From NCBI GenBank assembly GCA_045130455.1, contig JBGUPV010000155.1:22890-86889 (forward strand): 64,000 nucleotides of DNA. Direction: 5' to 3'. This stretch comes from Lachnospiraceae bacterium. GTDB taxonomy: Bacteria > Bacillota > Clostridia > Lachnospirales > Lachnospiraceae. Both the position numbers and the translations under genes were made by a program. Positions within the stretch are counted from its first letter, which is position 1. The number at the start of each line of letters is the position of its first letter. The notes beneath the pieces are model-generated. The model was not told where the DNA came from. It ran no database searches and saw nothing but the letters and a program-made list of their open reading frames with translations. Of this stretch, positions 4,784 to 56,069 are shown in pieces.

Positions 4784-6724
4784 CTACTCGAAAGGGTACC
4801 CCTCATACATCCGCAGATGTTTGAATAACGTTTTCCTGTCGAACCCATATGTTGCCGAGCGACCGCTGATCGCATTTTTGAGATCATTGATCAGATACTG
4901 CGGCAGATACGCGGACAATTCTTTCACCATCGGAGCTGCCTCGTCCGGAACGACCCCCCAGCCGCGTCCGAATGTGAACGAAACACTGTCAAATCCGAGG
5001 TCTCCGTATTCGAGAGTCAGGGAAACCACATAGGGCGCGATCACCTTGCCTGCGGCAACGCTGTTCTCCTCCGTCATCCCGTCGAACTTCGAGAACAGCT
5101 CCGAAAACAGTTCCTCATAGGAAACATCCCAAAAATGATCCCGATCATTAATGAAGGCCCCGTCCTTCACCCAGAAATCACTCGAACCCACCGTGGAATA
5201 GAAATCGGACCTGCCGTCCAGAATAACGATCGAAACCTTTCCGTACCCGTTGGGATATACTTCATACCCGGAGGGGATCACCGCGTATTTATCAAACGTA
5301 AAGCCCTCCAATCTTTGCTTCAGAAAGCCCTGTCCGACCCACTGCCGGATCGCAGCTTCCGTTTCCTCGGCGGTTATCTGAGGCTCTTCTTTCGTCAGTT
5401 CTTCATACCAATAATAACTCCACTCATCCGTAAGCGCGGCAGGGATGATCCTCACTTCGGCCGTACCGTCGGCGAGCGGAACATGAATGCTCTCCGCCTT
5501 CTCGTACCGACGGCGATATTCGTCGAACACCTCGCCTGTATACTTCATATCCGAGAATTCGAAATAGCGGTATCCTATCGATTCAGCGGCGATCATCTCG
5601 TCCGTCACATAGATTTCCTCATCCGTCTTCAGGGCATGCACCGGATCCCAGTCCGCCAAAAGGTCAAACTTACCCTGCTGACCGTAGACACTGGTGCAAT
5701 GATACCGTCCGTCAACTGTATTGCCGGCATAGAACGGTTCCGCTCCGGTATATTGATACTCCCTTTCTACTTCTCCGCCGTCATATTCGTCTGCGTCGTC
5801 ATATAAAGACCACGCTCCGGATTTTTCTCCTTCCCAGTCCGTATAAAACCAGTAATCGTTGGCAAAGGGATTGCCCTCCTCATCCGCCTCTTTTATCAAT
5901 CCGTTGACGATCTCGATATAATCCTCACCTTCCCGGAAGAAGTCGGACATTTTGAGTTCTTCCCCCGTGGCAAGGTTGAAATTAAACGGCTCGTACGCAT
6001 GGTAATAGTTGCCTCCGATTATCCACATGATGTAGACATCAAAACTGAGGATTCCTCCGGAACTGCTCACATTATCACATCGCACAATACTTTCCGCAGG
6101 ACCGTACTTCTCCAACAGTTGCACGATTCCCGGAATCTCCGGCAGATAACAGGGATCCCCCATCGCACGGACGATCTCATCCACGCGGTTATGGATCTTA
6201 TCCGCAACCGATTGATCCCGCAATCCGGAAACCCGAAGCGACGAGAGACGGTATTCATCCGCCGGTCTATTGTATACGGTATTGACCTCCTTCAACGTGT
6301 AATCCTCAACTTCAAGGGCGTGCCGGCGACTGATCCCGTATTTTTGGTTCAGTTCGTTGATCGGATCTTTCTCCGGTGCCTTCCCCTTTCCGGTACCGAC
6401 GGCAGAAATGCTCTTCGTCGGTCTCACGATCTCTTTGAGTTCCCGTTTCCGTGCGAGCCATTCCGCAGATCCTACAGCCGGATTGCCCGTCGGCGTCGGA
6501 GTCAAAACGACCGCTCCCGTCGGCGTCAAAACAACCGCTCCCGTCGGTGTCGGTTCCGCCGTCGGTACTGTCGTCGGCGTGGCTGCTTCCGGCGTCGTCT
6601 CGCCGGTCGGAGCGGCCGTCACTGTGGCAGTGGCAGCATTTTCCGAAGACGTCTTCTTCGAACACGCGACTGCCGAAACCGCCGTCAAGGCAAATAACAA
6701 AACAACTGTTGCTTTTCGTACCAT
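4784..6724 (-). CDS. lipoprotein, RsiV/PdaC-like module; paralog C
   Basis: 646-aa ORF. ATG at 6722-6724 with GGGGTGA upstream. Lipobox AVSAVAC and a T/P linker. LRVSGLRDQSVADKIHNRVDEIV and FNFNLATGEELKMSDFFREGEDY are present. C-terminus KHLRMYEGYPFE. Confidence 0.8.
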   Translation of the reverse strand: MVRKATVVLLFALTAVSAVACSKKTSSENAATATVTAAPTGETTPEAATPTTVPTAEPTPTGAVVLTPTGAVVLTPTPTGNPAVGSAEWLARKRELKEIVRPTKSISAVGTGKGKAPEKDPINELNQKYGISRRHALEVEDYTLKEVNTVYNRPADEYRLSSLRVSGLRDQSVADKIHNRVDEIVRAMGDPCYLPEIPGIVQLLEKYGPAESIVRCDNVSSSGGILSFDVYIMWIIGGNYYHAYEPFNFNLATGEELKMSDFFREGEDYIEIVNGLIKEADEEGNPFANDYWFYTDWEGEKSGAWSLYDDADEYDGGEVEREYQYTGAEPFYAGNTVDGRYHCTSVYGQQGKFDLLADWDPVHALKTDEEIYVTDEMIAAESIGYRYFEFSDMKYTGEVFDEYRRRYEKAESIHVPLADGTAEVRIIPAALTDEWSYYWYEELTKEEPQITAEETEAAIRQWVGQGFLKQRLEGFTFDKYAVIPSGYEVYPNGYGKVSIVILDGRSDFYSTVGSSDFWVKDGAFINDRDHFWDVSYEELFSELFSKFDGMTEENSVAAGKVIAPYVVSLTLEYGDLGFDSVSFTFGRGWGVVPDEAAPMVKELSAYLPQYLINDLKNAISGRSATYGFDRKTLFKHLRMYEGYPFE

Positions 6725-6889: not shown

Positions 6890-8584
6890 TTACTGAATCT
6901 TCTCACCGACAAGTTTCCAAGTTTCCTTGCCGTCCTCGAAACGGATCTCTTCTTTCTGAACCGTGTTACCGTCAGCATCGAATACTTTCTTTGCGGTATA
7001 GACAGTCTTGCCGCGGTATGTTTCCGTCTTATCTTCACCGATCCTGTTTCCGTCCTCGTCGTACGTATACTGCGTCGTTACCACGGTCAAAAGCTTGCCG
7101 TGCTTCTCCTCGTCCGTAAGACTTTCGTCAAAGAACTGGTCGTACGCTTCTTCGCTCACGGAAGTGATCAGGTTTCCCTTTTCGTCGTATGTATGGCGAA
7201 CATCAAACGGTCCGTCGCTTCCGTCTTCGCCGTACTCGCGGATGCAGTTCTTCGCCGCGTCATATTCGTAGGTACACTCAAACCATCCCTGGATATGCGT
7301 AAGCCCATGGATCAGCAATCCGTTTTCGAAGGTGTTCTCCTCCCAGATATCGGTGAATTCATAGTTGCCGTCGGCATTTTTCTCAACCGTGCCGATCTTC
7401 AGGATTTCATCCTCCTCCGAATGAGGATACGCGTCAACGCCCTTGTTGATCAGCGCAAGCGTTTCATCACACGGAACAAACAGCTGCCCATCCCCTTCAC
7501 GCTCAGGATCGGCATCGGAATCGTCCGAATAATAGACTTCCAATACGGAACCGTCCTCGTTGTAAATGTACAGAGTTTTCGACTTCTCAAAAAGACTCCT
7601 TTCCAGGTATTCCCCGCTTCTCTCGATAACTCTTGCGACGATCCGCCCCTGTGCATCGGTTTCGTAGGAATACTTCTCCGAATAGGAATACTCTTTCCCG
7701 TTCGTTCGTGTCTTTGCCTCTTTCGCCGTAAGGTTTCCGACCTCGTCGTAGGTATAGCGAAGTCCTTCGGAAAGAACGTATACGTCTCTGTCCGGATCAT
7801 AGAAGAATCTTGTTTCTTCCGTCGTCCGTCCCTCCGGATCATACTGTGTGGAAGTGACTCCGGTAAGCTTTCCGTCATCGCCGTAGTATTCCGCACGGAG
7901 GATCTCTCTTCCCGCGCTGTCCTTCTTTGTCACGGTATCGTCGTTCAGGTTGACCCGAACATATTTCTCTCCGTCAAATTCTACCACATGTCCGACTTCG
8001 GAAGTATAGGAAAAATAAACCTTTTCCCCGTTCAGGTACTGAATGACGGCTTTCACACCGTTTTCACCCGTGTACGTTTCCGTCTTATCATAACGGTACT
8101 TTTTGTACTCTTCCGGAGACGTGGACTCAAATGCTCCGGTAAAGTTCTCGTCCTGCGGAACGGCAAATGTCTCCGTCTCCTTGTATGTGCACCCGCTCAG
8201 GTTCGCCGCCTGCTCGCTGAGGATATCCTTCCCCTGCTGCTCCGTGTATCTCGGCTCGAGAACCAGTTCAACGTCCGTCGGAAAATTCTCCGGTAACGCG
8301 CTCTTCGTCGGCTCGGCGATCGGCGTCGGCTCCTCGGTCGGCGCAACCGCCTCGGTAGGTGTCGGCTCTGCGGTCGGTTCCGCGGTAGGCGTTACCGCCT
8401 CCGTGGGTGTCGGCTCCGCGGTCGGCGTAACTGCCTCCGTAGGTGCGGCCGTCTCAGTCGGCGTGACCGCTTCCGTCACGGTTACCGCAGGCGTCGTATC
8501 GTTCTTTGTCTTTCCGCTCTCGCATGCCGTAAGGCTGAAAAGACCGATCATCAAAATTGTTAAAGCAACTCTCTTTCCGTTCAT
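6890..8584 (-). CDS. YD/RHS-repeat-like lipoprotein (family member 0)
   Basis: 564-aa ORF. ATG at 8582-8584 with a GGGGGGG RBS. Lipobox FSLTAC. (PTEAVTPTAEPT)n linker. YD-type repeats: YTYDEVGNLTAKE, HTYDEKGNLITSV, YTYDEDGNRIGED, FDADGNTVQKEE. Confidence 0.8.
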   Translation of the reverse strand: MNGKRVALTILMIGLFSLTACESGKTKNDTTPAVTVTEAVTPTETAAPTEAVTPTAEPTPTEAVTPTAEPTAEPTPTEAVAPTEEPTPIAEPTKSALPENFPTDVELVLEPRYTEQQGKDILSEQAANLSGCTYKETETFAVPQDENFTGAFESTSPEEYKKYRYDKTETYTGENGVKAVIQYLNGEKVYFSYTSEVGHVVEFDGEKYVRVNLNDDTVTKKDSAGREILRAEYYGDDGKLTGVTSTQYDPEGRTTEETRFFYDPDRDVYVLSEGLRYTYDEVGNLTAKEAKTRTNGKEYSYSEKYSYETDAQGRIVARVIERSGEYLERSLFEKSKTLYIYNEDGSVLEVYYSDDSDADPEREGDGQLFVPCDETLALINKGVDAYPHSEEDEILKIGTVEKNADGNYEFTDIWEENTFENGLLIHGLTHIQGWFECTYEYDAAKNCIREYGEDGSDGPFDVRHTYDEKGNLITSVSEEAYDQFFDESLTDEEKHGKLLTVVTTQYTYDEDGNRIGEDKTETYRGKTVYTAKKVFDADGNTVQKEEIRFEDGKETWKLVGEKIQ

Positions 8585-8751
8585 GTGTACCCCCCCTGTA
8601 GTGAATTCCGTATTACCACTGTCGGAAGTATAGCACAGAAAAATATTACGTTGGTTACTTTTCTGTTACGTTTTCGGCGTAAAATCTTACATCTTTGTTA
8701 AGACTTGTTACAGAACGATTACAACCCCGGAAAACGAGATATTTCACACCT

Positions 8752-8797
8752 CAAAAAACCGAAAAAGGCCGCCCGGAAACCTGCTCCGGACGGCCTT
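8752..8797 (-). terminator. intrinsic terminator of valS
   Basis: Minus strand reads AAGGCCGTCCGG-AGCAGGTTT-CCGGGCGGCCTT followed by TTTCGGTTTTTTG. This is a 12-bp GC-rich stem with one mismatch, 50 nt after the valS stop. Confidence 0.8.
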
Positions 8798-8846
8798 CGG
8801 AAAATCCTGTTTTGTGACTTTCGATGCTCCGCTCTTACCCGTGCGA

Positions 8847-11507
8847 TCACTGCTTGCCGAGGTGAGCCAGCTGCTCCTCAACCTGCTTCATCATCGCGGT
8901 GTATTTTTCGAGCTTCGCGCGCTCCTCGGCGATCTTCGCCTCGGGTGCCTTGGATACGAAGCGCTCGTTGCTGAGCATGCCGTTGACGCGGGCAAGCTCG
9001 CCGGTGAGACGCTCCTTCTCCTTCTGAAGTCGCTCGATCTCCTTTGCGATATCCACAAGATCCGACAGCGGCATGTAGACGGTCGCGCCTGCAACCACTA
9101 CGGACACAGCGTCGTCATCGATACCGGTCTTGTCGCTCTGAACCGTAACTTCGCTTGCGCTGCCGAGTGCTGCGAAGAAGTCCTTGCTGCCCTCGAAGAT
9201 TTCACGAACATGCTCCGAATCAGAAACAACGAACACCTTCGCCTTGCGCGACGGCGGAACGTTCATGTCGTTTCTGAGTACACGCATCGCGGTAACGGCG
9301 TTCTTGATCAGCTCAACCGCCTCTTCCTCACGGCTCCATACGAAGGCCTTGATGAACTCAGGCCACTCGGAGATCATGATGGAAGTGTTGTCATCGAGAT
9401 GTCCCTGTGCGTCGGCAAGGGTGCGGTAAATCTCCTCGGTGATGAACGGCATGAACGGATGCAACAGCTTCATGGACGTCGTGAGAACCATGCACAAGGT
9501 AAACATCGCAGCCTGCTTCGTCTTAAGCTCCGTGCCGTAGAGACGAGGCTTCACCATCTCGATGTACCAGTCGCAGAACTCGGACCAGATAAAGTCGTAA
9601 ATCTTGCCTGCGGCGATACCGAGCTCGAAGTTCTCAAGGTTCTCCGTAACGTCGGCTACCAGCTGGTTACACTTGGAAATGATCCAGCGGTCCGCGTCCG
9701 TAAGGGCACTCATATCAAGATCGCCGCTCATGTCAACCTGCTCGAGGTTCATCATGATGAAACGGCTCGCGTTCCAAACCTTGTTGGCGAAGTTGCGGCT
9801 TGCCTCAACACGCTCCCAGTAGAAGCGCATGTCGTTGCCGGGCGCGTTGCCGGTGACGAGCGTGAAGCGAAGCGCGTCCGCGCCGTATTTGTCGATCACC
9901 TCGAGAGGATCGATACCGTTTCCTAGGGACTTACTCATTTTCCGACCCTGAGAGTCGCGAACGAGACCGTGGATGAGAACCGTCTTGAACGGAACCTCGC
10001 CCATCTGCTCGATGCCGGAGAACATCATTCGCATTACCCAGAACGGGATGATGTCGTAACCGGTAACCAGCGTGCTCGTCGGGTAGAAATACTCAAGTTC
10101 CTTGGTCTTCTCCGGCCAGCCGAGGGTCGAGAACGGCCACAGAGCCGAGCTGAACCAGGTGTCCAGAGTATCGGGATCCTGGCGCATGGGCTTGCCGCAC
10201 TTCGGGCAAACAGCGCTGTCTTCCTTGGTTACTACCGTCTCGCCGCACGCGTCACAGTAGAACGCCGGGATCCGGTGGCCCCACCACAGCTGGCGGCTGA
10301 TGCACCAGTCGCGGATATTTTCAAGCCAATGGAAATATGTCTTCTCAAAATGCTCCGGAACGAACTGCGTCTCATCCTTCTTTACAGCGTCGATCGCGGG
10401 GCCTGCCAGCGGCTTCATCTTGACGAACCACTGCATCGAAACGCGGGGCTCGATGGTGGTGCCGCAACGGTAGCAGGTGCCTACGTTGTGGGCGTGATCC
10501 TCGATCTCCGTGAGGGCGCCGCACTCCTGCAGATCCTTTACGATTGCCTTGCGGGCCTCGTAGCGGTCCATGCCGGCGTACTTCGGATAGTCGTCCGTGA
10601 TCTTCGCATCGGGCGTCAGAACATTGATCACCGCGAGGTTGTGGCGGAGACCTACCTCAAAGTCATTAGGGTCATGAGCCGGTGTGATCTTGACAACACC
10701 GGTACCGAATTCCATGTCAACGTACTCGTCGCCGATCACCGGGATCTCGCGGCCCACGAGCGGCAGCGTAACGGTCTTGCCGATCAGGTGCTTGTAGCGG
10801 TCATCGTTCGGGTTAACCGCAACGGCGGTATCGCCGAGCATCGTCTCGGGACGCGTGGTTGCCATCTCAATGTAGCCGCTGCCGTCCGTGTACGGATAGC
10901 GCAGATGCCAGAAATGACCTGCCTGATCCTCGTAGTTTACCTCCGCGTCGGAGATCGTCGTCAGGCAGTGAGGGCACCAGTTGATGATGCGGTTTCCGCG
11001 GTAAATGAGCCCCTTGTTGTAGAGGTTTACGAAAACTTCCTTAACGGCTTTGTTGCAGCCCTCATCCATGGTGAAACGCTCGCGGTCCCAGTCGCAGGAC
11101 GAGCCCATTTTCTTCAGCTGGGAAATGATGCGGCCGCCGTACTGGCGCTTCCACTCCCATGCTCTCTCGAGGAAGCCCTCACGTCCGAGGTCCTCCTTCG
11201 TGATGCCTTCCTTTGCCATGGCCTCAACGATCTTCGCCTCGGTGGCGATGGACGCATGGTCTGTGCCGGGAAGCCACAGAGCCTCATAGCCCTGCATACG
11301 CTTGAAGCGGATCAAAATGTCCTGCAGCGTGTTGTCCAAAGCGTGGCCCATGTGCAGCTGTCCGGTGATGTTCGGCGGCGGGATCACGATCGTGTACGGC
11401 TTCTTCTCGGGCCGTACTTCCGCATGAAAATACTTCTTGTCCTGCCACATCTGATACAGGCGGTCTTCAATCTCTTTCGGATTGTAGGTTTTAGCCAGTT
11501 CCTTCAT
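8847..11507 (-). CDS. valS: valine--tRNA ligase
   Basis: Class I aaRS motifs are present ([13 protein letters not shown] and KMSKSLGN), with full-length similarity to ValS including the C-terminal coiled coil. I place the start at the ATG at 11505-11507 ([14 protein letters not shown]), which has AAGGAG upstream. The ORF-track start at 11597 adds 30 Arg/Ser-rich residues that overlap the T-box terminator. Confidence 0.97.
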
Positions 11508-11587
11508 GTGTTGCTCCTTTCTGTGTGGGTGCGCTGTCCCGCAACCTCGCGAACTGCGTTCGCTCGGTGTACGTGCGCTCGGAACCC

Positions 11588-11889
11588 AAATAAACAAAGA
11601 CGCCCCTCGCCGTATAAGGACGAGGGGCTGTTCGTGGTACCACCTTATTTCGCAGCTTGCGCTGCCTCTTTACGCCGCTCCAACAAGCGACTCATCGGTA
11701 ACGGGATTACCCGGAGATTCCTATTCCCGCATCGCCGCGCCAGAAAGCACCGCTGCCGGTTTCAAAATCTCAGCTCCGAAGCTACTTCCGCATCTCCGTC
11801 TCCGAACCGGTCTTGCAGCCTTGAACCGGTCTCTCTGTCGGTCGGTGGAAACGTACTCCTCTTCTTCCATGCCTTTGTGTTATGAATAT
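11588..11889 (-). promoter_or_regulatory. T-box leader (tRNA-sensing riboswitch) of valS, probable Val (GUA) specifier
   Basis: The minus strand carries the AGAGAG GA-motif at the Stem I base (rc of 11831-11840). The conserved T-box AAUAAGGUGGUACCACG is the rc of about 11631-11650. A terminator follows: CCCCUCG-UCCUUAUACGG-CGAGGGG then CGUCUUUGUUUAUUU (11588-11628). The candidate specifier is GAA-GUA-G (GUA is the rc of 11783-11785). Confidence 0.85.
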
Positions 11890-11895
11890 GTGCAT

Positions 11896-11924
11896 ACTTT
11901 ACCGCAGCCCGAGGGCTTTGTCAA
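11896..11924 (-). promoter_or_regulatory. sigma-70-type promoter of the valS leader
   Basis: Minus strand: TTGACA (rc of 11919-11924), a 17-nt spacer, then TAAAGT (rc of 11896-11901). Confidence 0.6.
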
Positions 11925-11948
11925 GGAAAAATTCCGAGGCGTATCCGA

Positions 11949-13433
11949 TCAATAGTATGTGTACTCATACTCCGTCTGTTCCGGCTCCTCACCGTCGCTG
12001 AGCTTTACCTCTTTCACGATGTTCCCGTGATCATCGTAGTCCGTGCTTATCTCGGAGTAGAGCGCACTGAAGAAGTTTCTGGTATTCACTCTTCTGCCGT
12101 TCTCGTCGAAGGTCGTCTTCATCTTTTCCTCAATATCGTCATCGCTTAAGTATTCCTTCCAACTGTACATTTCCAGTCTCCATGTTCCGTCCAGCGCACG
12201 ATATTCCATATCCGACACTTCAAGCCCGTTCCCCCATTCCTCGTTCAAGCAGGTAAGCTGTCGAAAAAGTTCATTGTCCCCGTAACTTTCCGTCGACACC
12301 GAAGGCGTCAGAAAATATAATTCCTCTTTACTTACGGGCGCTTCACTCTCTTCTCCCGTATCGGGATTCCTTTCACAGGAGTACATCCGCTTGCTGAAGA
12401 TTCCTTTTGCCGAGTCCCAGTCGCAGACCGTTTTTTCGCAGTACTTCTCCCCCTCGGCATAGGAACGCATCACCAGGATCTTTCCCAGCGCATCAAACTC
12501 ATTTTCCTTGATCGTCCCGTCCGCGAACGTCAGGATGCTCTTCGAACACACTCGCCCGCCTTTATACTGATATTCAACGGTACACATCTCATAGGGTTCG
12601 CCGTCAATCTCTCCGCAGAACACTTTCATACGGTTCAGCCGGCCGGATTCATCATAATACTTCTCATAGGTCTTTTCCCTGGTCACCGTCACATCATCGT
12701 CATAAATTTGCCAGTATACCCCGTATCCGGTCACCTTCCGCTGCTCGGCATCATACTCAGCCGCAACCACCTCCCGCCGGGATCCCGGCGGCAAAGAATA
12801 ACCGATTGCCCCGACTTCTTTCCGGTAGATGAGATTCCCGTACGCATCATATTCCATCTCGTGGCACCAATAAACATCCCCGTCCGAGTCGGTACCTTTG
12901 TTCAGGATCTCATCCCCGTTTTCGTTGTATCGTATCTCCTGTATCCTTTTGTAATCTTCGTTTGCGTTGCCTTCCCGTACAAAGCGGATACGGTCGGAAT
13001 CCCCGTCGTATTCATAGGACATAACGTACGGAACAACCTTCGAAGGATCCTCTCCGGCCTTCGTGGTAACCGTCGTCAGCGAAGCGACCCTCCCTTTGCT
13101 GTCGTACTCGGTGCGGATCTCCGTTTTCGTTTCCTCCCCGAACAGATGCAAATACCAGGAACTGCTGAAGATTTCCCGGCCGTCCGCATCCAGATCGACC
13201 TCATCCGTCCGGATCTTCGTCCGCACCCCTTTCTCGTAAGCATACGTGTCACAAACATAGCTTCCGGGGTATTTCACCGCCGGATCATTGCCCGGATTTC
13301 CCGGCGTCGACCCGGTGTCCGCCACCGTCCCGTTGTTCGCGTCATTTTCCGACTTCTTTTTGTCTCCCTTGGTGCAGGCCGTCATACACAGACAGACGAT
13401 CAGCACCGGGATCAACCATGCTTTTCCTTTCAT
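11949..13433 (-). CDS. YD/RHS-repeat-like lipoprotein (family member 1)
   Basis: The start is moved to the ATG at 13431-13433 (MKGKAWLIPVLIVCLCMTAC, lipobox), which has GGGGGAG upstream. The track start at 13625 adds an Arg/Ser-rich extension that overlaps the upstream gene. Repeats: EYDAYGNLIYRKE, YDESGRLNRMKVF, DYDDHGNIVKEVK. C-terminus EYEYTYY. Confidence 0.8.
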   Translation of the reverse strand: MKGKAWLIPVLIVCLCMTACTKGDKKKSENDANNGTVADTGSTPGNPGNDPAVKYPGSYVCDTYAYEKGVRTKIRTDEVDLDADGREIFSSSWYLHLFGEETKTEIRTEYDSKGRVASLTTVTTKAGEDPSKVVPYVMSYEYDGDSDRIRFVREGNANEDYKRIQEIRYNENGDEILNKGTDSDGDVYWCHEMEYDAYGNLIYRKEVGAIGYSLPPGSRREVVAAEYDAEQRKVTGYGVYWQIYDDDVTVTREKTYEKYYDESGRLNRMKVFCGEIDGEPYEMCTVEYQYKGGRVCSKSILTFADGTIKENEFDALGKILVMRSYAEGEKYCEKTVCDWDSAKGIFSKRMYSCERNPDTGEESEAPVSKEELYFLTPSVSTESYGDNELFRQLTCLNEEWGNGLEVSDMEYRALDGTWRLEMYSWKEYLSDDDIEEKMKTTFDENGRRVNTRNFFSALYSEISTDYDDHGNIVKEVKLSDGEEPEQTEYEYTYY

Positions 13434-13455
13434 AATTCTCCCCCTGTTTCTTATT

Positions 13456-14760
13456 TCACTCCGTGAAATACTTCGGAAAATACGTATACTCGTATTCCTT
13501 CCACGGCTTTTCCGTTCCGTCTTCCTTGACGCGATATTCTCGCGTCCGATGATCATACTCATCGTACTCACGGATCTCATTTTCCGAATATCCCCGATAT
13601 GTCTGACGGATGATATGCCCCGCATTGTCGAACTCGGCCTCCACGACGGTTTCCATCATATCCTTCTCATTCGGATGCTCGGCACGCTCGTTCGCCCACA
13701 CGTATTTCAGTGTATTCTTCAGAATCGTAAAATGATAATCCTCGTCTGGCTCATTGACGGGATGATTCAACACGATGAAGTACTCTTCTTCATCCTCCAG
13801 CATTTCATCATCATACTGCTTGTAATGCCTCCGTAGGTTTACCTCACGATTCGCCACCGGGTAATCACTGACATCCCAAAAGTATACATTGTACGATACG
13901 ACAACGCCGTTGACGATCTTCTCTTCGGAGATCACTCTTCCCATGCCGTCATATACCGTCCGGTTTCTGACGTTGAACACTCCATTTATATCTCCCGCCG
14001 TGTCGTAGGAAAATTCAAGGATCGTTCCGTCCATACCGTAGGCTGTAGTTGACTGCGACCTCAAAACGCCGTTCGGATCAAACATCCGGGAGATGCCGCG
14101 GTTCGTCCCGCGGTCGAAGGATCGCTCTTCGATCATTGACACGCCACCGTCGTCATCGTAGAATCTCACGACAGTTATATCCTGATCGACATAGGAGTCA
14201 ACCAGGATCTCCGGAATGTCATTATCCTCACTCCATTTCCTGCGGAAAATGACATTGTACATGGAGTCATACTTATTTTCCTCAGCGCTGAACGTTCCGT
14301 CATCGCTCTCTCTCCGCGAATAAAGAACCCTTTGGGAATCGCCGTCGTACACGTAAGTGTACGCTTCGGTAGATTCAACATCGCGGTACCAACCGGAAAC
14401 AATCTCGTAATACATGCGATCCAACTCGTCGAAGAAGCATCTCTCTTCCGTCCCCATATACGGCTCATCGGAGTCATCAGGCGGATACGTCATGCCGGAG
14501 TCGTAAGACAATTGTTTTCTGCGGATCACACGCCCTTTCTGATCCAGATCACATTCTTCTTCTTTGATCAGTACGCGATAGTCCCCCCTGTACAAATACT
14601 CTTTCTTCGTATAACTCGCGACCTCGGTCTGCCGGCGTTCATCTGCAGCGTTCTCCTGCGGACCATCCTTTTTCGACGATCCGGAGCACGCCGAAAGAAG
14701 TGCCGCTGCAAGCAGCGCCACTGTAAGCAAAAGGATCATTTTCCGAATCCGTTGCGTCAT
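13456..14760 (-). CDS. YD/RHS-repeat-like lipoprotein (family member 2)
   Basis: 434 aa. ATG at 14758-14760 with GGAGAGGA upstream. Signal peptide RKMILLLTVALLAAALLSAC. YVYDGDSQRVLYS and MFDPNGVLRSQ are present. C-terminus EYEYTYFPKYFTE. Confidence 0.8.
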   Translation of the reverse strand: MTQRIRKMILLLTVALLAAALLSACSGSSKKDGPQENAADERRQTEVASYTKKEYLYRGDYRVLIKEEECDLDQKGRVIRRKQLSYDSGMTYPPDDSDEPYMGTEERCFFDELDRMYYEIVSGWYRDVESTEAYTYVYDGDSQRVLYSRRESDDGTFSAEENKYDSMYNVIFRRKWSEDNDIPEILVDSYVDQDITVVRFYDDDGGVSMIEERSFDRGTNRGISRMFDPNGVLRSQSTTAYGMDGTILEFSYDTAGDINGVFNVRNRTVYDGMGRVISEEKIVNGVVVSYNVYFWDVSDYPVANREVNLRRHYKQYDDEMLEDEEEYFIVLNHPVNEPDEDYHFTILKNTLKYVWANERAEHPNEKDMMETVVEAEFDNAGHIIRQTYRGYSENEIREYDEYDHRTREYRVKEDGTEKPWKEYEYTYFPKYFTE

Positions 14761-14781
14761 AGTAATCCTCTCCGAAACACA

Positions 14782-16149
14782 TCAATAGTAGGTGTATTCG
14801 TACTCGTAGGAATCCTCTGGAATCCATTTTCCGTCTTCGTCAAACTTAGAAACTTTGACTACATTTTGGTGTTCATCAAACTCTTCGATTTCTGTCTGCC
14901 AACCGTAGTGATACGTCATTCTCTTCATAATATCCCCGTTGGAATCAAAGACCGAGTCAACAGTTGTCTCCCTCTCCCGGATAAGCGCTCCGTCGGAAGC
15001 CCCATCTACCGTTTTTTCAACATACTCATATACCCGAAAACAACCAACATTACCAGAACGCGAATCCGATTCTTGTCCATCCAGATAAAAGCTTTCATAC
15101 TTCGGCACAAGGTTTCCGTCACTATCTTTACTCATCACGGTTCGGATATTCACCTTTCTGTTCGGTACCGAACTGTCCTCGACGCCCCATCGGTATTCAA
15201 ATGCAGTATTGACAACTCCATTGTCATGGAATTCCGTCTCTCTGATCATTCTTCCCTGATCATCGTACAAATACTCTCTGTAGCAATACATTTTCCCATC
15301 ATTGTCTGCACGTAAATACACCTCTTCAATCATCACCCCGGCTGTGTTGTACTTATACCGGGTTTCGGACGTGACTTTGCCTTCATCATCCCTACTCAGC
15401 TCAGCAACACAGTGTCCCTGTTCATCATACTCAAGCACTTCTTCATAGTAAGCGCCGTCAGAAGGATCGGTTACAACAACTCGTATCGGACGTCCGTTCT
15501 CATCATAGTACCACTCCTCTTCGCTTTGAATCTGTTCCGAGTAATCTTCACCTTTTCCATAATCGTAGCTGATCCTCTTTCCATCCTGAAAGTTCGATTC
15601 GTACAAAACCCTGTAATGATCACCATACCTCGAATCAAATTCTTTATGAAAAATCGTATGGCCGAATTGATCGTATTGACACTCACGAATAATCTGAAGC
15701 TCACCCTCCAGGCTTGTATACAGATTAATTTGACACAATTCTCTGTCAGAATCCCCGTCATAGACAGGCAACAAACTGGAATATTCCTCACCTTCCGGAC
15801 CAAAACTCTCTGCCCAATAGAATACTTGTCTGTCAAGATCATCGTACATCCACCGTTTTTCATAACCCGATCCATCGTCATCATACCGAACGTTCTCACG
15901 GATTTTTCTCCCTTTTGAATCCAGATCCACTTCGGTCACACTAATCAGGACTCGCTTTCCGTTCTCGTCAAACTCATAGCTTTTATAATCATAACTGCCG
16001 GGGAGCCGCTTATTCAGCTCCGCAGCGTTCTCCTGCAAATTCTCCTGTGAGCTCCCCTTTTTCGACGATCCGGAGCACGACGAAAGAAGTGCCGCTGCAA
16101 GCAGCGTCACCGCAAGTGAAAGGGTCATTTTCCGAAGGGGGTGCGTCAT
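14782..16149 (-). CDS. YD/RHS-repeat-like lipoprotein (family member 3)
   Basis: ATG at 16147-16149; the track starts one codon earlier on TTG. Signal peptide RKMTLSLAVTLLAAALLSSC. Repeats: YDENGRPIRVV, EYDEQGHCVAELS, LYDDQGRMIRETE, FDSNGDIMKRMT. C-terminus YEYEYTYY. Confidence 0.8.
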   Translation of the reverse strand: MTHPLRKMTLSLAVTLLAAALLSSCSGSSKKGSSQENLQENAAELNKRLPGSYDYKSYEFDENGKRVLISVTEVDLDSKGRKIRENVRYDDDGSGYEKRWMYDDLDRQVFYWAESFGPEGEEYSSLLPVYDGDSDRELCQINLYTSLEGELQIIRECQYDQFGHTIFHKEFDSRYGDHYRVLYESNFQDGKRISYDYGKGEDYSEQIQSEEEWYYDENGRPIRVVVTDPSDGAYYEEVLEYDEQGHCVAELSRDDEGKVTSETRYKYNTAGVMIEEVYLRADNDGKMYCYREYLYDDQGRMIRETEFHDNGVVNTAFEYRWGVEDSSVPNRKVNIRTVMSKDSDGNLVPKYESFYLDGQESDSRSGNVGCFRVYEYVEKTVDGASDGALIRERETTVDSVFDSNGDIMKRMTYHYGWQTEIEEFDEHQNVVKVSKFDEDGKWIPEDSYEYEYTYY

Positions 16150-16164
16150 CAAAACTGCCTCACT

Positions 16165-17562
16165 TTACTCGTACGTATATTCGTAGATCCACTCGCTCCC
16201 CGGGACAATCTCGTTGTTCTCCAACGAATATTCACGTACTACATTGCCCATCGTGTCGTATTCCCTGACATCACATCGGTCGTATCTGTTATAAGCTGTT
16301 TGCTTCACCGGCTTTCCGTCCTTGTCAAACTCCGTGTCAAGCCCCAGTCTCATTTCTTCCGACAGACTCGGTCCCCCGCTCCCGGTTCCCATATTCCAGT
16401 CGATCACCCGCTCCCGCATCCGATACATACTGTTGTAATCATCAATATCCCCGAGATAGTATGTTTCACTGGTAAGCACCTGAACACCATTGTAAAGATC
16501 GTATACCGATTCGCGGTTCACTTTTCGGTTCGGTACCGTCGGGTCATCGATATCCCACTCCACTTGTGTAAGAGAGTTCAGAGTCCCATCCAGGAAGTTC
16601 TCCGTTGACCGGCACAACCGTTCCTGCTCGTCATATTCATCCGAATGGGTCAGACACCAGACTGAATTGACCGCTGTATACCTGCGGTACTCTGCGATCT
16701 TTCCGTTGTTATGATACTCGAACTCCTCCTTCTCGTACGGGTTGTCAGGATCATATGACTGATCGTATGACGCCGTTCCGACACATCTCCCGTCCTCGTC
16801 GTATTCATACAGCTTGCGAACATGGTTGCCGGGCTTCAGATACTCAACTCCGTCATCGGTATAACTGTACACCGGGCAATGCTCGTCTTCCCAGAGCAGT
16901 CTTCCTTCTTCATCATAACAGAATGTCTCCACGACAACCTTCTCTCCGTACTCGTCCGGAGTATCGGCATACTTATATACGCGCCGTTTGGTTCCCTGAA
17001 TGTCAGAATCGACTTGAATTCTATAACCGTCGGTCAGCAGGTCGGTAGCCCGCTCAAAGATTAAGTTCCCGTATGCGTCGTACTGCCGCTCCGTGATCTC
17101 AACATCATCTGACGAGCCGTCCCCATGCTGTTCCTGATACACAATCCTGTCGGAATCCCCGTCATATGCCAGAAGTCCGTACGTTAAGAAGCGTATCTCC
17201 GTATTTTCCACCCATTGAGTTGCTTCCCAGTACACCACGCGCCCCAGCTCATCATACAGCCAGCGCCGCTGCCCTTTTCTTTGTAAATCCGCACCTCGTG
17301 CATATTCCCACCGGATCTTATGACCCTTCTCATCCATTTCGTACGCATCATAATCGGTATGCTCTCTGGTTCCGTCCTCCCGAATATAATACGTGTTAAA
17401 ACTGTACTTTCTCGGTCCCGTGTACTCTTCTTCCGCGGCTTTTCCGGATTTCGCATCCTCGTCCCTGTCCCGCGGTTTCTTCCCGCACGCCGACAACAGT
17501 GCCGCCGTAAGCAGCGCCACTGCAAGCAAAATGATCATTTTCCGTGATCCGTGCCTTCTCAT
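16165..17562 (-). CDS. YD/RHS-repeat-like lipoprotein (family member 4)
   Basis: 465 aa. ATG at 17560-17562 with GGGGAG upstream. Signal peptide RKMIILLAVALLTAALLSAC. Repeats: QYDAYGNLIFERA, CYDEEGRLLWEDE, EYDEDGRCVGTAS, EYDTMGNVVREYS. C-terminus IYEYTYE. Confidence 0.8.
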   Translation of the reverse strand: MRRHGSRKMIILLAVALLTAALLSACGKKPRDRDEDAKSGKAAEEEYTGPRKYSFNTYYIREDGTREHTDYDAYEMDEKGHKIRWEYARGADLQRKGQRRWLYDELGRVVYWEATQWVENTEIRFLTYGLLAYDGDSDRIVYQEQHGDGSSDDVEITERQYDAYGNLIFERATDLLTDGYRIQVDSDIQGTKRRVYKYADTPDEYGEKVVVETFCYDEEGRLLWEDEHCPVYSYTDDGVEYLKPGNHVRKLYEYDEDGRCVGTASYDQSYDPDNPYEKEEFEYHNNGKIAEYRRYTAVNSVWCLTHSDEYDEQERLCRSTENFLDGTLNSLTQVEWDIDDPTVPNRKVNRESVYDLYNGVQVLTSETYYLGDIDDYNSMYRMRERVIDWNMGTGSGGPSLSEEMRLGLDTEFDKDGKPVKQTAYNRYDRCDVREYDTMGNVVREYSLENNEIVPGSEWIYEYTYE

Positions 17563-17575
17563 CCCGATCTCCCCG

Positions 17576-18946
17576 TCAATAGTAGGTGTACCTATATTCC
17601 TCCCGCATGATCTCTCTGTACTCCGACGTCGACATCCGGATTTCCGTAAGATTACCGTGCTCGTCGTACTCCCGCTCTTCGATCCAGTTCGGAGTCTTAT
17701 ACTTCAGACTCGCCCTTGTTCCGTCGAGATGATATTTTACTCTGTAAAAATACGGCCAGGGATCATCCTCCAGTTCGGGGTGAACGATATCCGCGCTGAA
17801 CAACCCTCTCTCCGTGAATTGTTCGAGATTGTCGTCGATCAGCGCTGTTTTCTCTTCCGGATCATACTCGAACGGCGATCTGTCACCGTTCTGATAATCA
17901 CAAAGATATATGCAGCTCGCTTCGCAGTTATAGGTATCTCCGTCCTCGACTCTGCAATAATTCTTTATAACACCTGTCGGAACCCTTGTGTTCATGAGTT
18001 CGTACTCCGACATGGATTCCGCGTCCTCAACAAAAGGATAGTCACCGGCCCACCCAAGCCGCGGATCGAAGATACAGTATTCAAAGAGAACTGCCGCATG
18101 CGGCAGGGAATACAATCCCCCGTCGTAGACATCGATCCGCTCACAATAGTCAAAGTTATCAAAATATTTATACTTGTAACGCTCCGTCAACACCGGCGTC
18201 CACCCGGTTTCCGCGTCACACTGATAATTCCGCTGCTGCTCCATCAGCCCGTCGGCATTATATATTCTTTCACTCTCGAGCGCCCTGGTTGGATACTGCC
18301 CCGAGGACTCCGTGTTATTGTCAACGATCCGATACAGTTCAAGCGATCTCTCGTTCAACTCCGCCGTCGTCTCCAGCCGTCCGTTCCGGTTCAGCTCTTT
18401 TCGGAAAATGAGGTTTCCGTAAGTGTCGTATTTCCGCTCTGTATGCTCCAGAACATAACCGTCCGCATCCACGGTCCTTCGAAGCGTCTCCCGCTTTGTG
18501 TCACCGTCGTAGGCATATACCGTTGCGCGGGGATAGCCCTCGGCGATCCCTTCATCCGTCGTGCGCAGCGTCTCCTTATATACGACCCGGCCCAGATCAT
18601 CGCGCACGTACCACACCTCCTCCGTGCTTCCTATCGGGAGGTCATCGGATACGGTTGCCTCATATCGGCAGGATTTATAGATCGTCTGACCGTTTTTATC
18701 GACCTTGACAACTTCCGTCCGCCGGTCATTAACATTCTCGTCCCTCACCGTACTGACCTTGCACTCGTAGCTCCCGGGATTCCATTCGGTCGGCTCCGAA
18801 AGCACCCTGCGCACCTGCGCGGGGTCACCGCCATTCCCGGAATTCTTCGACGAAGCCGATTTTCGGCCGCAAGAAGAAAGCTGTGCCGCTGCAAGCAGCG
18901 ACACAACAAGTAAAATGACCCATTTTCCCCTGATCTGCCTTCTCAT
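17576..18946 (-). CDS. YD/RHS-repeat-like lipoprotein (family member 5)
   Basis: 456 aa. The ATG at 18944-18946 overlaps the upstream stop (ATGA). Signal peptide GKWVILLVVSLLAAAQLSSC. Repeats: AYDGDTKRETLRR, KYDTYGNLIFRKE, EYDEHGNLTEIRM. C-terminus EEYRYTYY. Confidence 0.8.
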   Translation of the reverse strand: MRRQIRGKWVILLVVSLLAAAQLSSCGRKSASSKNSGNGGDPAQVRRVLSEPTEWNPGSYECKVSTVRDENVNDRRTEVVKVDKNGQTIYKSCRYEATVSDDLPIGSTEEVWYVRDDLGRVVYKETLRTTDEGIAEGYPRATVYAYDGDTKRETLRRTVDADGYVLEHTERKYDTYGNLIFRKELNRNGRLETTAELNERSLELYRIVDNNTESSGQYPTRALESERIYNADGLMEQQRNYQCDAETGWTPVLTERYKYKYFDNFDYCERIDVYDGGLYSLPHAAVLFEYCIFDPRLGWAGDYPFVEDAESMSEYELMNTRVPTGVIKNYCRVEDGDTYNCEASCIYLCDYQNGDRSPFEYDPEEKTALIDDNLEQFTERGLFSADIVHPELEDDPWPYFYRVKYHLDGTRASLKYKTPNWIEEREYDEHGNLTEIRMSTSEYREIMREEYRYTYY

Positions 18947-19869
18947 ACGATTCCATCTTCTTTTGCGTCTTCCGTAGTGCCTTCCCCAGGCTTCGCCGCG
19001 GCTTTCGCGCCCACACTCTTCAGATCCGGTTCCACGATCTCGCCCTTGCCGACGGATTGCCCGTCCTCACGCAGGAACCGGCGCCGCTCCTCCGCATCCT
19101 CGGGCATCGCGCTCTGCAACCCGCGGATGATGCCGGGATAGCTGACGGAGCGCATGGACGGGAACGCGTCGAGCATTCGCTTCTGTTGCCTTGTAAAAAA
19201 CTGGAGCATCCCTCGGAAGAACGTCTCGACCACGACTGTGTCGTACAACGCCGCCATGCGGTCCTTGACCGCCGAAAGTTTCTCGGCGATCTTGCCGATC
19301 TTCTCCTCGAAGTCCGCCGCATGCTTCACGCTCACCACGAGATCGATGAAAAATACAGCGATCAAAGTCCACGCTGTCAGATGCAGCGCCAGCGGCGGCA
19401 TCAGACCGATCAGCCACAGCGTGCGCGGGTTGATGTATCGCAGCAGCACCACCGACATCAGACCGAACGCGAAAAATCCTTCGATACAGATGCGTCCGTT
19501 GAGGTGAAGCAGCATGTCCGTGTAATCCCACCAGCGGGCATTGAACATCTTCTCCATCAGATAGCCGGTCAGGTACTCGACGCCACAACAGATGACCGCG
19601 CTCACAAAGAACAGCAGGATCGGTTTGTCCTTGAGTCCGCTGAGTAAAAACAGATCGATCAGCGCGCCGGCGCCGTAGATCGGAATGTATGGCCCGATCA
19701 TGAAGCCGCGGTTGACGATCCTGTGCTTATCCCACAGCGAGTAGAAGAAGCTCTCCCACACCCATCCGATGAAGCTGTAGATGATAAACATCAAAAAACT
19801 GGTTTCAACAAGTTCCACGGGATCGCACACTCCTTCCGAGCGCCAGGGCAATCCCGCGCAAAGTCTCAT
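18943..19869 (-). CDS. polytopic membrane protein, 'putative ABC-transporter type IV' (CmpB-like) family, with a charged C-terminal tail
   Basis: IYSFIGWVWESFFY...NRGFMIGPYIPIYGAGAL...GVEYLTGYLMEKMFNARWWDYT is typical of that family, from memory. The start is uncertain. The ATG at 19869 overlaps the HD gene by 65 nt. Alternatives are the GTG at 19818 (GGAAGGAG upstream) and the ATG at 19791. Confidence 0.7.
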   Translation of the reverse strand: MRLCAGLPWRSEGVCDPVELVETSFLMFIIYSFIGWVWESFFYSLWDKHRIVNRGFMIGPYIPIYGAGALIDLFLLSGLKDKPILLFFVSAVICCGVEYLTGYLMEKMFNARWWDYTDMLLHLNGRICIEGFFAFGLMSVVLLRYINPRTLWLIGLMPPLALHLTAWTLIAVFFIDLVVSVKHAADFEEKIGKIAEKLSAVKDRMAALYDTVVVETFFRGMLQFFTRQQKRMLDAFPSMRSVSYPGIIRGLQSAMPEDAEERRRFLREDGQSVGKGEIVEPDLKSVGAKAAAKPGEGTTEDAKEDGIV

Positions 19870-20290
19870 ACGTTGCGCACGCTTTATCGACGACGCAAAG
19901 GATCTTTCCCTCCTTCGTCTTCGGTATGCGCAGGTTCAGCGGGAACATATGACAATGGATCATATCCTCCTCGATCCCGGTCAGTTTAAAATCGCGGCGG
20001 GCATTTTTCAACGCCTTCTCCGCATGGAAAAATCCGTGAAGACGATGGCTCGGATCATCCTCATGCCAGTCGTACAGAAAATAATCGTGCAGAAGCGCTC
20101 CGCGCACCAGACTCCTGCGGTTGACCCGCACCGGAAGCCTGTCGGCCAGCGCCAGACATCCCCGCGCCACAAGCATCGAATGGTCATAGACCGTGATGTC
20201 GCCGTGCTGCAGGAACGTCTTCTCCATCTGCATGCCCGGCGAGCGCAAAATGTCCCCGCCGTGCTTCCACAATTCCCTCTTATACTTCAC
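19805..20290 (-). CDS. HD-domain phosphohydrolase (small, about 160 aa)
   Basis: GTG start at 20288-20290 with AGGAGGA 8 nt upstream. H...HD metal-binding pattern: HSMLVA...GALLHDYFLYDWH...HGFFHAEKAL...HMFP. Confidence 0.75.
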   Translation of the reverse strand: MKYKRELWKHGGDILRSPGMQMEKTFLQHGDITVYDHSMLVARGCLALADRLPVRVNRRSLVRGALLHDYFLYDWHEDDPSHRLHGFFHAEKALKNARRDFKLTGIEEDMIHCHMFPLNLRIPKTKEGKILCVVDKACATYETLRGIALALGRSVRSRGTC

Positions 20291-20334
20291 GCAAACGTCC
20301 TCCTGTGTCCGAATTCCCCCACTGTATCCCGGGC

Positions 20335-21171
20335 TTATCTGTCCCGGTATGCCTTCTTCAGCTTATTGACCGTCTCATCGAAGAACCACCAGAATTCCTC
20401 GGTGGCTTCCTCTTCCTTGCCCCGCAGCTCCATCAGATGCAGGTAGTTGATGTAATCCGGCGAATACTCCCGGTTTTCCTCCACAAAATAGAACTGATTC
20501 TCGATGCGGCGGATGACCTCCGTCTCCCGCGAGTACACCGTGAGCTCGTTGTTGAATTCCTCCTCCATACCGCCGAGCTTGAGCGCGTACAGATACTGGC
20601 ACAGACTCTCCTTGTAGCCGCTCTTCTGGTACGCGGTCTGAAAATACTTCGCCGCGTTGCGGAACTGTCCGTTCTGCGCCATCAGGACCGCGATGTTGTG
20701 GTACGCCGCGCCCTGTTCCTCCTCCGAGAGCTGCGCGAAATCCCGGTCGTCCAGGATCGTCTGGTACTCCAGAAGCGCCTCTCTCGTCTTACCGTACCGA
20801 AGGATCGCCGACGCGTGGTGGCGTTTGCGCTCGATCGGAAGCAGCTCGAAATACTCGTCGATCTTGCCGATCAGATGATTGATCTCGTCCTGGCTGTAAT
20901 AGTCGGTGCTGCAGAAGATCGAAACCACGATATCCTTGATCCCCGATTTGCGCTCCATCAGCGTCGAGAGGAAATCGGCCCGTTCCGGCATATTCAGTTC
21001 CACACGGATCCACGGCACCAGCTGGCTCTCCGCGAGGTCCTCCTCCATCGTCTCCACGTTGTGGAAGAGGTAGTAACACAGCTCCTCCATCGTGTAGACA
21101 CACACCCCTGTGGACTGAAAATAAAACGGTATCTTTGCTTTGTCACCGATACAGTATATAAGTCGTCCCAT
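20335..21171 (-). CDS. hypothetical protein with C-terminal TPR-like helical repeats
   Basis: 278 aa. ATG with a GGGAGAA RBS. No recognisable catalytic motif. AAYHNIAVLMAQNGQFRNAAKYFQTAYQKSGYKESLCQYLYALKLGG looks TPR-like. Confidence 0.65.
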   Translation of the reverse strand: MGRLIYCIGDKAKIPFYFQSTGVCVYTMEELCYYLFHNVETMEEDLAESQLVPWIRVELNMPERADFLSTLMERKSGIKDIVVSIFCSTDYYSQDEINHLIGKIDEYFELLPIERKRHHASAILRYGKTREALLEYQTILDDRDFAQLSEEEQGAAYHNIAVLMAQNGQFRNAAKYFQTAYQKSGYKESLCQYLYALKLGGMEEEFNNELTVYSRETEVIRRIENQFYFVEENREYSPDYINYLHLMELRGKEEEATEEFWWFFDETVNKLKKAYRDR

Positions 21172-21189
21172 AGTTCTCCCGTTCCGCCG

Positions 21190-22446: not shown

Positions 22447-22463
22447 CCCGTGCTCCTCCTGGG

Positions 22464-23267: not shown

Positions 23268-23287
23268 GATTATTTCCCCCTGTCACT

Positions 23288-35123: not shown

Positions 35124-35187
35124 ATTCTCTCCTCTTCCGGTCATGCGGCCGTTTCCCCATGAAATTGCCGACAAGTCCCTTTCTGCT

Positions 35188-35216
35188 ATTGTACCGCAGG
35201 AAGCGCGAGTTATCAA
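35188..35216 (-). promoter_or_regulatory. sigma-70-type promoter of the NADAR-Macro gene
   Basis: Minus strand: TTGATA (rc of 35211-35216), a 17-nt spacer, then TACAAT (rc of 35188-35193). It lies directly after the upstream terminator. Confidence 0.6.
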
Positions 35217-56068: not shown

Positions 56069-56069
56069 C

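Follow-up and report, generated by a model that had tools for sequence, protein, structure and literature searches.

What might a lipoprotein composed of Rhs-type repeats do when there is no toxin for it to enclose? The question is raised by a stretch of 64,000 nucleotides (nt) of DNA (hereafter the window; positions 22,890 to 86,889 of contig JBGUPV010000155.1, GenBank assembly GCA_045130455.1), whose host is probably a monoderm Clostridia bacterium of the family Lachnospiraceae and which carries six genes for short lipoproteins of the YD/Rhs-repeat type. To our knowledge, all characterised YD/Rhs proteins (Tc toxins, Rhs effectors of the type VI secretion system, WapA and the teneurins) form a closed capsule around a C-terminal domain. 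An earlier note, made from the letters of the window, had treated the six genes as a single family of truncated, lipid-anchored Rhs proteins; all six open reading frames (ORFs) with lipoboxes are present on the minus strand, the start of one of them (B) being moved to 13433, and they are listed here with their lengths in amino acids (aa) and the scores of the members against the family profile.

A: 6890-8584, minus strand; 564 aa; generic YD-repeat lipoprotein, as classed by sequence, carrying a long PT-rich linker; outside the B-F family
B: 11949-13433, minus strand; 494 aa; family member, ortholog of a single-copy syntenic gene; 427 bits
C: 13456-14760, minus strand; 434-aa family member; 302 bits, in two pieces
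D: 14782-16152, minus strand; 455 aa from the ATG at 16149; family member and modelled protein; 338 bits
E: 16165-17562, minus strand; 465-aa family member; 351 bits
F: 17576-18946, minus strand; 456-aa family member, first gene of the array; 305 bits

On balance, we take B-F to be intact genes, probably transcribed together, whose extracytoplasmic products are tethered to the membrane and would serve as binding or scaffold sheets without enzymatic activity. The family was defined with a profile derived from alignment A3, membership requiring a match over at least 80% of that profile. When the ORFs of the window were searched, B-F scored 302-427 bits and A scored 27 bits in three fragments; identity is 25-34% among B-F themselves and 23-28% between B-F and A, which also lacks the C-terminal EY(E)YTY(Y) signature. 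When 1.84 billion cluster representatives were searched exhaustively with HMMER and the B-F profile, 580 matches at E<=1e-3 and seven at E<=1e-30 were obtained. Among the 250 proteins retrieved, about 30 were full-length colinear homologs (413-577 aa, at least 127 bits), whereas generic YD-repeat proteins reached at most 91 bits and matched only in part. The homologs share one order of motifs, namely PGSY, D..GR, YDxLGR, YxYDGD, YDxxG, YYDxxGRLxR and YDxxGR, followed by W-x-x-x-DP-x-x-PG-K-x-V, FDxxG, EYDxHGN and EYEYTYY. As judged by these sequence comparisons, B-F constitute a rare, colinear family of fixed length, and A is a generic YD-repeat lipoprotein that has the same type of repeat and lies outside this family, so that the single six-member family is replaced by five plus one.

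The family has so far no specific annotation beyond marginal RHS_repeat matches and 'hypothetical protein' names. The 90%-identity cluster of D has a single member among about 15 billion proteins, and B is 37% identical to P0033, which is named 'hypothetical protein [Lachnospiraceae bacterium]'. Scans with Pfam and NCBIfam revealed no model specific to B-F, a scan of the GTDB species-representative genomes yielded no close relative and only three distant YD loci, and a word-index search with the 23-sequence profile yielded chiefly generic YD-repeat proteins and missed the true family. Likewise, no description of such proteins was found in the literature searched on YD/RHS repeats in combination with lipoproteins, Firmicutes or Lachnospiraceae, or on PF06541. 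Databases contain many unstudied entries for short toxin-less YD-repeat lipoproteins; the B-F family appears to be limited to a few gut or rumen-type Lachnospiraceae assemblies.

In all six proteins, a positively charged n-region at the start is followed by a hydrophobic h-region and a lipobox (LTAC in A, MTAC in B, LSAC in C and E, LSSC in D and F) with the Cys at residue 20-26, in agreement with the lipoboxes that had been claimed for them, lipidation being predicted from sequence. Hydropathy is 2.4-3.1 at the N-terminus of A-F and below 0.9 in the remainder of each protein, and the hydropathy scan found no second hydrophobic segment in any of them. The tether that follows is only about 27 residues long in B-F; A alone has a long PT-rich linker. 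Every one of the approximately 30 full-length members carries an N-terminal anchor, which is a lipobox in about half of them and an uncleaved transmembrane helix in the rest. Because the two anchors interchange across the family, membrane tethering, and not lipidation, is its conserved feature; 'lipid-anchored' would thus fit the six lipobox proteins of the window and fails for about half of the wider family.

At the other end, the EYEYTYY-like termini ascribed to five of the six proteins were seen in B-F (EYEYTYY in B and D, EYEYTYF followed by six residues in C, IYEYTYE in E and EYRYTYY in F), and nearly all of the full-length members end in YxYxY (for example, EYEYTYY, EYEYTYR, FEYEYY or VEYKYY). 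This ending is not specific to the family and is common among YD ladders. In JGI metagenomes, a scan with the back-translated EYEYTYY-stop gave ten places, with no true family member and three generic YD proteins of 304-362 aa that end in this way (L013 6180-7091, L014 5479-6534 and L020 2607-3692). The ending may correspond to that half of a YD repeat which forms the strand (the Y-x-Y ahead of the D-x-x-G turn) and hence the natural last strand of a ladder.

Evidence for YD/Rhs repeats is thin in the individual proteins, whereas sequence comparison makes it clear at the level of the family. The RHS_repeat model (PF05593; cut-off 22 bits) scored 24.6 in A, 19.3 in D, 14.4 in E and 10.4 in B and had no match in C and F; TIGR01643 (cut-off 15.8 bits) was passed by A (32.6) and D (21.9) only. 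Per-protein scans therefore uphold the repeats in A with both models and in D with the second, and leave B, C, E and F below the cut-offs. For the family, PF05593 was matched by 14 of the 23 aligned members at E<=0.01 (best 5.8e-10), and the A3 profile compared with the sequences of solved chains retrieved the Rhs and teneurin chains 7q97 (3.1e-15), Tse5 (9e-11), Tre23 (1.2e-8) and the teneurins (~1e-7), superseding the marginal matches of a smaller profile, A2, to PDB sequences (4r03, E 0.0077; 3tzg, E 0.22). Clean YDxxG[NRKHQ] motifs number 4, 4, 1, 4, 5 and 2 in A to F, far above the roughly 0.1 expected from shuffled sequences, and the three peptides quoted in the earlier note are all present. 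The statement that the proteins are built almost entirely of YxYDxxGN/R repeats fails at the level of motifs, with one to five clean copies in each protein, and holds structurally, the mature part of D being modelled as a hairpin ladder; the repeats are too degenerate, so that counting motifs or hidden Markov model matches misses what the model of D displays.

AlphaFold2 models were obtained for D, on the 23-sequence alignment, and for A, on a poorer one. The D model (mean predicted local distance difference test score (pLDDT) 79.2; predicted template modelling score (pTM) 0.71) is all-beta and consists of an antiparallel hairpin ladder of 27 strands that spans the whole mature part after a disordered tether (residues 23-47, pLDDT <50). 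Of its 25 listed turns, 17 are five-residue turns of the D-x-x-G type, and 13 of these 17 are preceded by Y or F. When the D model was compared with the PDB using Foldseek, the top 20 matches were all Rhs, Tc-BC, teneurin, TLP and SGS1 shells (E 6e-10 to 3e-7), with engineered OspA single-layer sheets next (E ~1e-6). The template modelling scores (TM-scores) to the shells were 0.10-0.25 with root-mean-square deviations of 18-33 Å, indicating that the match is to the local hairpin-ladder architecture and not to a rigid part of a shell. The A model (pLDDT 62.7) is disordered over residues 19-163, which include the PT-rich linker, and contains confident hairpin-ladder blocks at 167-353 and 434-562; its top 18 PDB matches were all Rhs, Tc or teneurin-type shells, with OspA sheets again as a second class. 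Structure prediction, which might have revealed an unrelated fold, instead suggests for D a YD hairpin ladder that best resembles Rhs, Tc and teneurin shells. Over the whole fold, D was matched best by BFVD entry A0A8S5LL98 of Siphoviridae sp. ctvod4 (E 1.8e-12, TM-score 0.43-0.47), a 398-aa virome-contig protein annotated only with a lipoprotein lipid-attachment site.

B-F use Rhs-type repeats but are not Rhs toxins. The PxxxxDPxGL core, searched for with the regular expression P-x4-DP-x-G, is absent from all six proteins, the lone DPxG[LVI]-like site being DPNGV in C, and no C-terminal toxin is present, as the earlier note had held. No toxin or immunity families were found in Pfam, NCBIfam or PADLOC scans, and the Pfam scan gave no plug or delivery domain (PAAR, VgrG-binding or TcB propeller), the N-terminus consisting of signal peptide, lipobox and short disordered tether. 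B-F end on the last YD strand and the next gene, 12-22 nt downstream, is another paralog, which leaves no room for an immunity gene. Furthermore, the mature part comprises about 400 aa and 27 strands, compared with 664-2,932 residues in the matched shell chains; having neither plug nor toxin and about one-third of the length required for a closed Rhs shell, these proteins cannot work as toxin capsules. Nor does the description of them as truncated versions of Rhs proteins survive, since B-F form a self-contained, colinear, fixed-length family with conserved synteny and purifying selection (ratio of non-synonymous to synonymous substitution rates (dN/dS) of 0.35-0.48).

Our preferred reading can be put as a sequence of steps. 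Each of B-F would be exported by Sec and then lipidated at the lipobox Cys, and the flexible tether of about 27 residues would hold the protein on the outer face of the cytoplasmic membrane. The mature part of about 400 residues would fold into one hairpin ladder of about 27 strands, or 13-14 degenerate YD repeats, that ends on the last strand EYEYTYY, and would work as a binding or scaffold sheet, free of enzymatic activity, where membrane and wall meet. Aromatic residues and D-x-x-G turns, the structural positions, would be kept while the exposed strand positions vary between paralogs, and copy number changes via homologous recombination between signal-peptide segments of about 90 nt.

Several points weigh against this reading. 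The binding or scaffold role is drawn from absent catalytic and toxin features. In a monoderm cell, a tether of about 27 residues would place B-F near the membrane, which argues against exposure on the cell surface and weakens the earlier note's reading of them as variable surface binding modules. The TM-scores of the D model to Rhs shells (0.10-0.25) and to OspA (0.15-0.25) leave an open arc, a twisted ribbon and a small closed form indistinguishable. The dN/dS of orthologs remains below 1 (0.35-0.48), giving no indication of diversifying selection; lipidation and operon structure are predictions; the monoderm Clostridia host is indicated by the T-box leader described below and by the name of P0033, from a single named MAG relative; and the conserved adjacency of a CmpB-like gene, described below, fits a more specific partnership. 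For exposure on the surface of a thick-walled cell, A would be the better candidate, having a disordered PT-rich stalk of about 140 residues in its model, and the PT-linker lipoproteins encoded beside it are similar candidates.

The arrangement of the array and of the genes on either side of it involves the following features.

CmpB-like polytopic membrane protein gene: 18943-19869, minus strand; PF06541, 162 bits; immediately upstream of the array
valS: 8847-11507, minus strand; 886 aa counted from MKELAK; separates A from B-F
valS T-box leader: 11613-11878, minus strand; RF00230, 104.3 bits (gathering score, 93); marks the downstream boundary of the B-F unit

The stop codon of the CmpB-like gene and the ATG of F share a 4-nt overlap (ATGA), a Shine-Dalgarno-like sequence precedes every gene of the array, the intergenic gaps are 12-22 nt and the ORFs are intact. 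For B, the longest ORF (11949-13625, 558 aa) overlaps C; the start is the ATG at 13433, which has the Shine-Dalgarno sequence AGGGGGAG and a signal peptide and gives 494 aa. There is no strong terminator-like site inside the B-F array, and clear ones are found in the T-box leader (11628-11602) and after valS; a promoter-like site lies at 11924-11896. The overlapping and closely spaced genes, together with the lack of a strong internal terminator, suggest a single transcription unit, predicted to run from the CmpB-like gene, or from further upstream, through B.

Comparison with other loci separated a conserved member from an expansion. In locus L008, the gene order is DUF5717, Bax1-I, DUF5716_C, a 278-aa gene, HD, CmpB, one family gene and valS, the last being syntenic, 886 aa in length and with tRNA-synthetase Pfam domains. 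The short contigs of L005-L007 have this order from DUF5716_C as far as the family gene, after which the contig ends, and each of L005-L008 carries one family gene, P0033 or P0034. In a neighbour-joining tree, B grouped with P0033 and P0034 in 100 of 100 bootstraps, and C, D, E and F formed an exclusive clade in 81 of 100. Taken together, tree and synteny identify B as the conserved ortholog and C-F as an expansion, which among the sequences compared is seen so far only in this lineage. Another genome (L010, GCA_045115895.1, 8001-11146, and L011) also carries three tandem family members (441 aa, 427 aa and one cut by the contig end), which follow a Dus gene in an unrelated context, so tandem expansion of the family happened more than once.

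The stretch upstream of the array in the window (19805-26860, minus strand) is a conserved uncharacterised cluster encoding a DUF5717 protein (1190 aa), Bax1-I, DUF5716_C, a 278-aa protein without a Pfam match and an HD-domain protein. On the far side of valS and A lie three further tandem lipoprotein paralogs (464-2551, 2567-4771 and 4784-6724, minus strand; 695, 734 and 646 aa), which have a lipobox, a PT-rich linker and the C-terminus ...(M/I)YEGY(P/T/S)F(E/DQ) and no Pfam match. Identity is 28-36% among the three and 25-32% to two genes present in single copy, one of 701 aa directly after valS in L008 and one of 679 aa in L009; being multiple here and single-copy in those two loci, they indicate that both lipoprotein families flanking valS have expanded in this genome.

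The CmpB-like gene directly precedes a family gene in the window, in L001 and in L005-L008, and its stop codon overlaps the start of F. This arrangement admits the main alternative reading, that B-F are dedicated extracytoplasmic partners of the CmpB-like protein, assisting it by substrate capture, gating or stabilisation, like the anchored binding proteins of Gram-positive transporters, with the paralogs as alternative specificities. The anchors fit as well, for the family alternates between lipobox and transmembrane anchor in the way that Gram-positive solute-binding proteins do. We nevertheless consider such a partnership rather unlikely, because distant members occur in other contexts without PF06541: the single member of L009 adjoins a PBP_like_2 gene with no PF06541 gene nearby, and the members of L010 follow Dus, from which the CmpB-like link is specific to the clade of the window. 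The cluster also contains no ATPase gene, and PF06541 has no demonstrated transport function, being listed as 'not tested' in PMC11130926.

The array varies between strains. L001, a 4.7-kb contig of a related strain, carries the CmpB-like gene, F', E' and C' and no D. Since synonymous sites are saturated between the paralogs (proportion of synonymous differences (pS) 0.72-0.85), dN/dS was calculated from these strain orthologs, which compare with the window as follows (dS, synonymous substitutions).

CmpB-like gene: 86% aa identity, dS 0.53, dN/dS 0.16
F: 54% aa identity, dS 0.74, dN/dS 0.48
E: 92.5% aa identity, dS 0.11, dN/dS 0.35
C: 91% aa identity, dS 0.09, dN/dS 0.45

Divergence is mosaic across the locus, and the constraint on E, C and F is weaker than that on the CmpB-like gene while still purifying. 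The signal-peptide DNA of C, D, E and F consists of direct repeats of 57-110 nt that are 75-88% identical, whereas the mature parts cannot be aligned at the DNA level and their proteins are only about 30% identical. The repeat copies are given here.

C copy of the signal-peptide DNA repeat: 14651-14760, minus strand
D copy: 16040-16149, minus strand
E copy: 17450-17559, minus strand
F copy: 18869-18925, minus strand

Positions 11-3649 of L001 align to 19644-16060 of the window and positions 3560-4686 to 14760-13631, and the 90-nt overlap of the two alignments is the signal-peptide repeat, matching the 5' ends of both D and C. The position of this overlap within the repeat indicates that the gain or loss of D occurred through homologous recombination between its signal-peptide segment and that of C.

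These data bear on a second alternative, that C-F are a strain-variable lipoprotein repertoire whose turnover is driven by phage, in the manner of superinfection exclusion, or by host immunity. The contrast between the similar 5' repeats and the divergent mature regions, the presence of D in one strain and its absence from the other with the crossover inside the repeat, the mosaic divergence (54% in F against 91-92.5% in E and C) and the uniqueness of D among about 15 billion proteins all accord with it, as does the best global fold match of D (TM-score 0.43-0.47) to a 398-aa lipoprotein from a Siphoviridae virome contig. We regard it as doubtful all the same. Each copy has its own Shine-Dalgarno sequence and start codon and all lie in one transcription unit; the locus showed neither an invertible promoter nor a silent cassette, its only inverted repeats being of 16-18 nt with 78-81% complementarity; and dN/dS, at 0.35-0.48, does not exceed 1. 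PADLOC returned no defence-system match for the six proteins or their four upstream neighbours. A phage link at the sequence level was considered and rejected, tblastn with D, A and P0034 giving no match in 50,697 phage genomes and a scan of IMG/VR with the C-terminal signature giving none either, and matches to PHROG covered the signal peptide or the PT linker only. The fuller version of the idea, in which C-F would be a recombination-driven variable repertoire of YD sheets guarding the envelope, for example by blocking the entry of phage DNA, with the cassette of about 90 nt as crossover site, likewise stands as a long shot; if true, the repertoire would give Gram-positive bacteria an Rhs-fold equivalent of the variable lipoprotein families and of the lipoproteins by which prophages exclude superinfection.

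It is very improbable that the repeats are of the MORN/MORN_2 type (YwqK-like) and that their likeness to Rhs is generic to hairpin ladders. After the first match, the viral structure library did return mostly MORN-repeat proteins for D (E 1e-9 to 1e-4), and C has a weak MORN_2 match (PF07661, E 0.033; 14.8 bits against a cut-off of 29.6), with one of the 23 aligned members at E 0.0028. The sequence profiles favour Rhs and teneurin chains, however, with E down to 3e-15, and the 14 members matched by PF05593 compare with the one matched by MORN_2; in addition, the turns obey the aromatic-D-x-x-G rule of YD repeats, and the TM-scores to MORN proteins (0.12-0.20) are as low as those to Rhs. The MORN resemblance is structural only. 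That B-F are decayed, non-functional remnants of Rhs polymorphic toxins, as the similarity to Rhs shells in sequence and fold and the missing core and toxin would allow, is scarcely credible, given five intact reading frames, a colinear architecture common to about 30 divergent homologs that all end at the same strand, a conserved syntenic position, purifying selection and N-terminal anchors unlike Rhs N-termini.

Two other regions of the window were recorded in passing. A 1389-aa ORF at 51962-56131 (minus strand) has an N-terminal polytopic membrane region, K/D/E-rich tracts and long (EEARRAAEEAAAA)-type low-complexity repeats and no Pfam match, in a region with a GC content of 0.59-0.63 and an AT skew down to -0.36. 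At 32034-35216 (minus strand), a 1060-aa protein combines an N-terminal NADAR and a C-terminal Macro domain, both ADP-ribose-linked, in a region that is GC-rich and strongly AT-skewed.

The interest of B-F lies in the presentation of about one-third of a shell's worth of YD repeats as a free-standing, membrane-tethered sheet without cargo. The family would be a tractable model for the role of YD sheets outside encapsulation and for how such a sheet terminates and stays soluble, and the locus is a clean Firmicute example of copy-number change via recombination between conserved signal-peptide segments. A dedicated family profile would improve annotation; for as long as the family lacks an assigned function, its practical importance is modest.

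Among known systems, the shells of Rhs, TcB-TcC and teneurin proteins (7q97, 8cp6, 7pq5, 4igl and 6fay) share with B-F the same hairpin ladder with aromatic residues and D-x-x-G turns, in chains of well over 1,000 residues as against about 400 mature residues. Rhs and Tc proteins further possess a core or autoprotease, a plug, an encapsulated toxin, an immunity gene and a PAAR, VgrG or TcA context, none of which accompanies B-F, and their N-termini are unlike the lipoprotein signal peptide of B-F or the transmembrane anchor of other family members. WapA of Bacillus subtilis resembles B-F in being a Gram-positive, envelope-associated YD-repeat protein. It is very large, with N-terminal cell-wall-binding domains and a C-terminal tRNase toxin with cognate immunity gene, and B-F have none of these. 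Borrelia OspA and its engineered variants (2fkj, 2oy7 and 3cka) offer a lipoprotein with a free-standing antiparallel hairpin sheet, as in B-F, but have no sequence relationship to them, TM-scores of 0.15-0.25, globular end domains and a location on the outer surface of a diderm cell. The Vlp, Vsa and Vsp proteins of Mycoplasma and the Vsp and Vlp proteins of Borrelia are variable lipoprotein multigene families with conserved 5' ends. In common with C-F, they have tandem lipoprotein paralogs, conserved signal-peptide DNA and strain-variable gene content; they differ in that no switching machinery was found at the present locus, where one apparent unit serves all copies, and the fold is unrelated. 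The generic YD lipoproteins of gut Firmicutes and Bacteroidota (P0007 of Lachnospiraceae, 790 aa; P0009, 351 aa; P0011, 656 aa), the class of A, have a lipobox or transmembrane anchor, contain YD repeats only and carry no toxin. These proteins contain regular repeats (PF05593, 59-67 bits) and vary in length, whereas the repeats of B-F are degenerate, their length is fixed and they possess motifs that generic YD proteins lack (PGSY, YxYDGD and W-x-x-x-DP-x-x-PG-K-x-V). B-F are thus a distinct, rare variant of fixed architecture among the short toxin-less YD-repeat lipoproteins.

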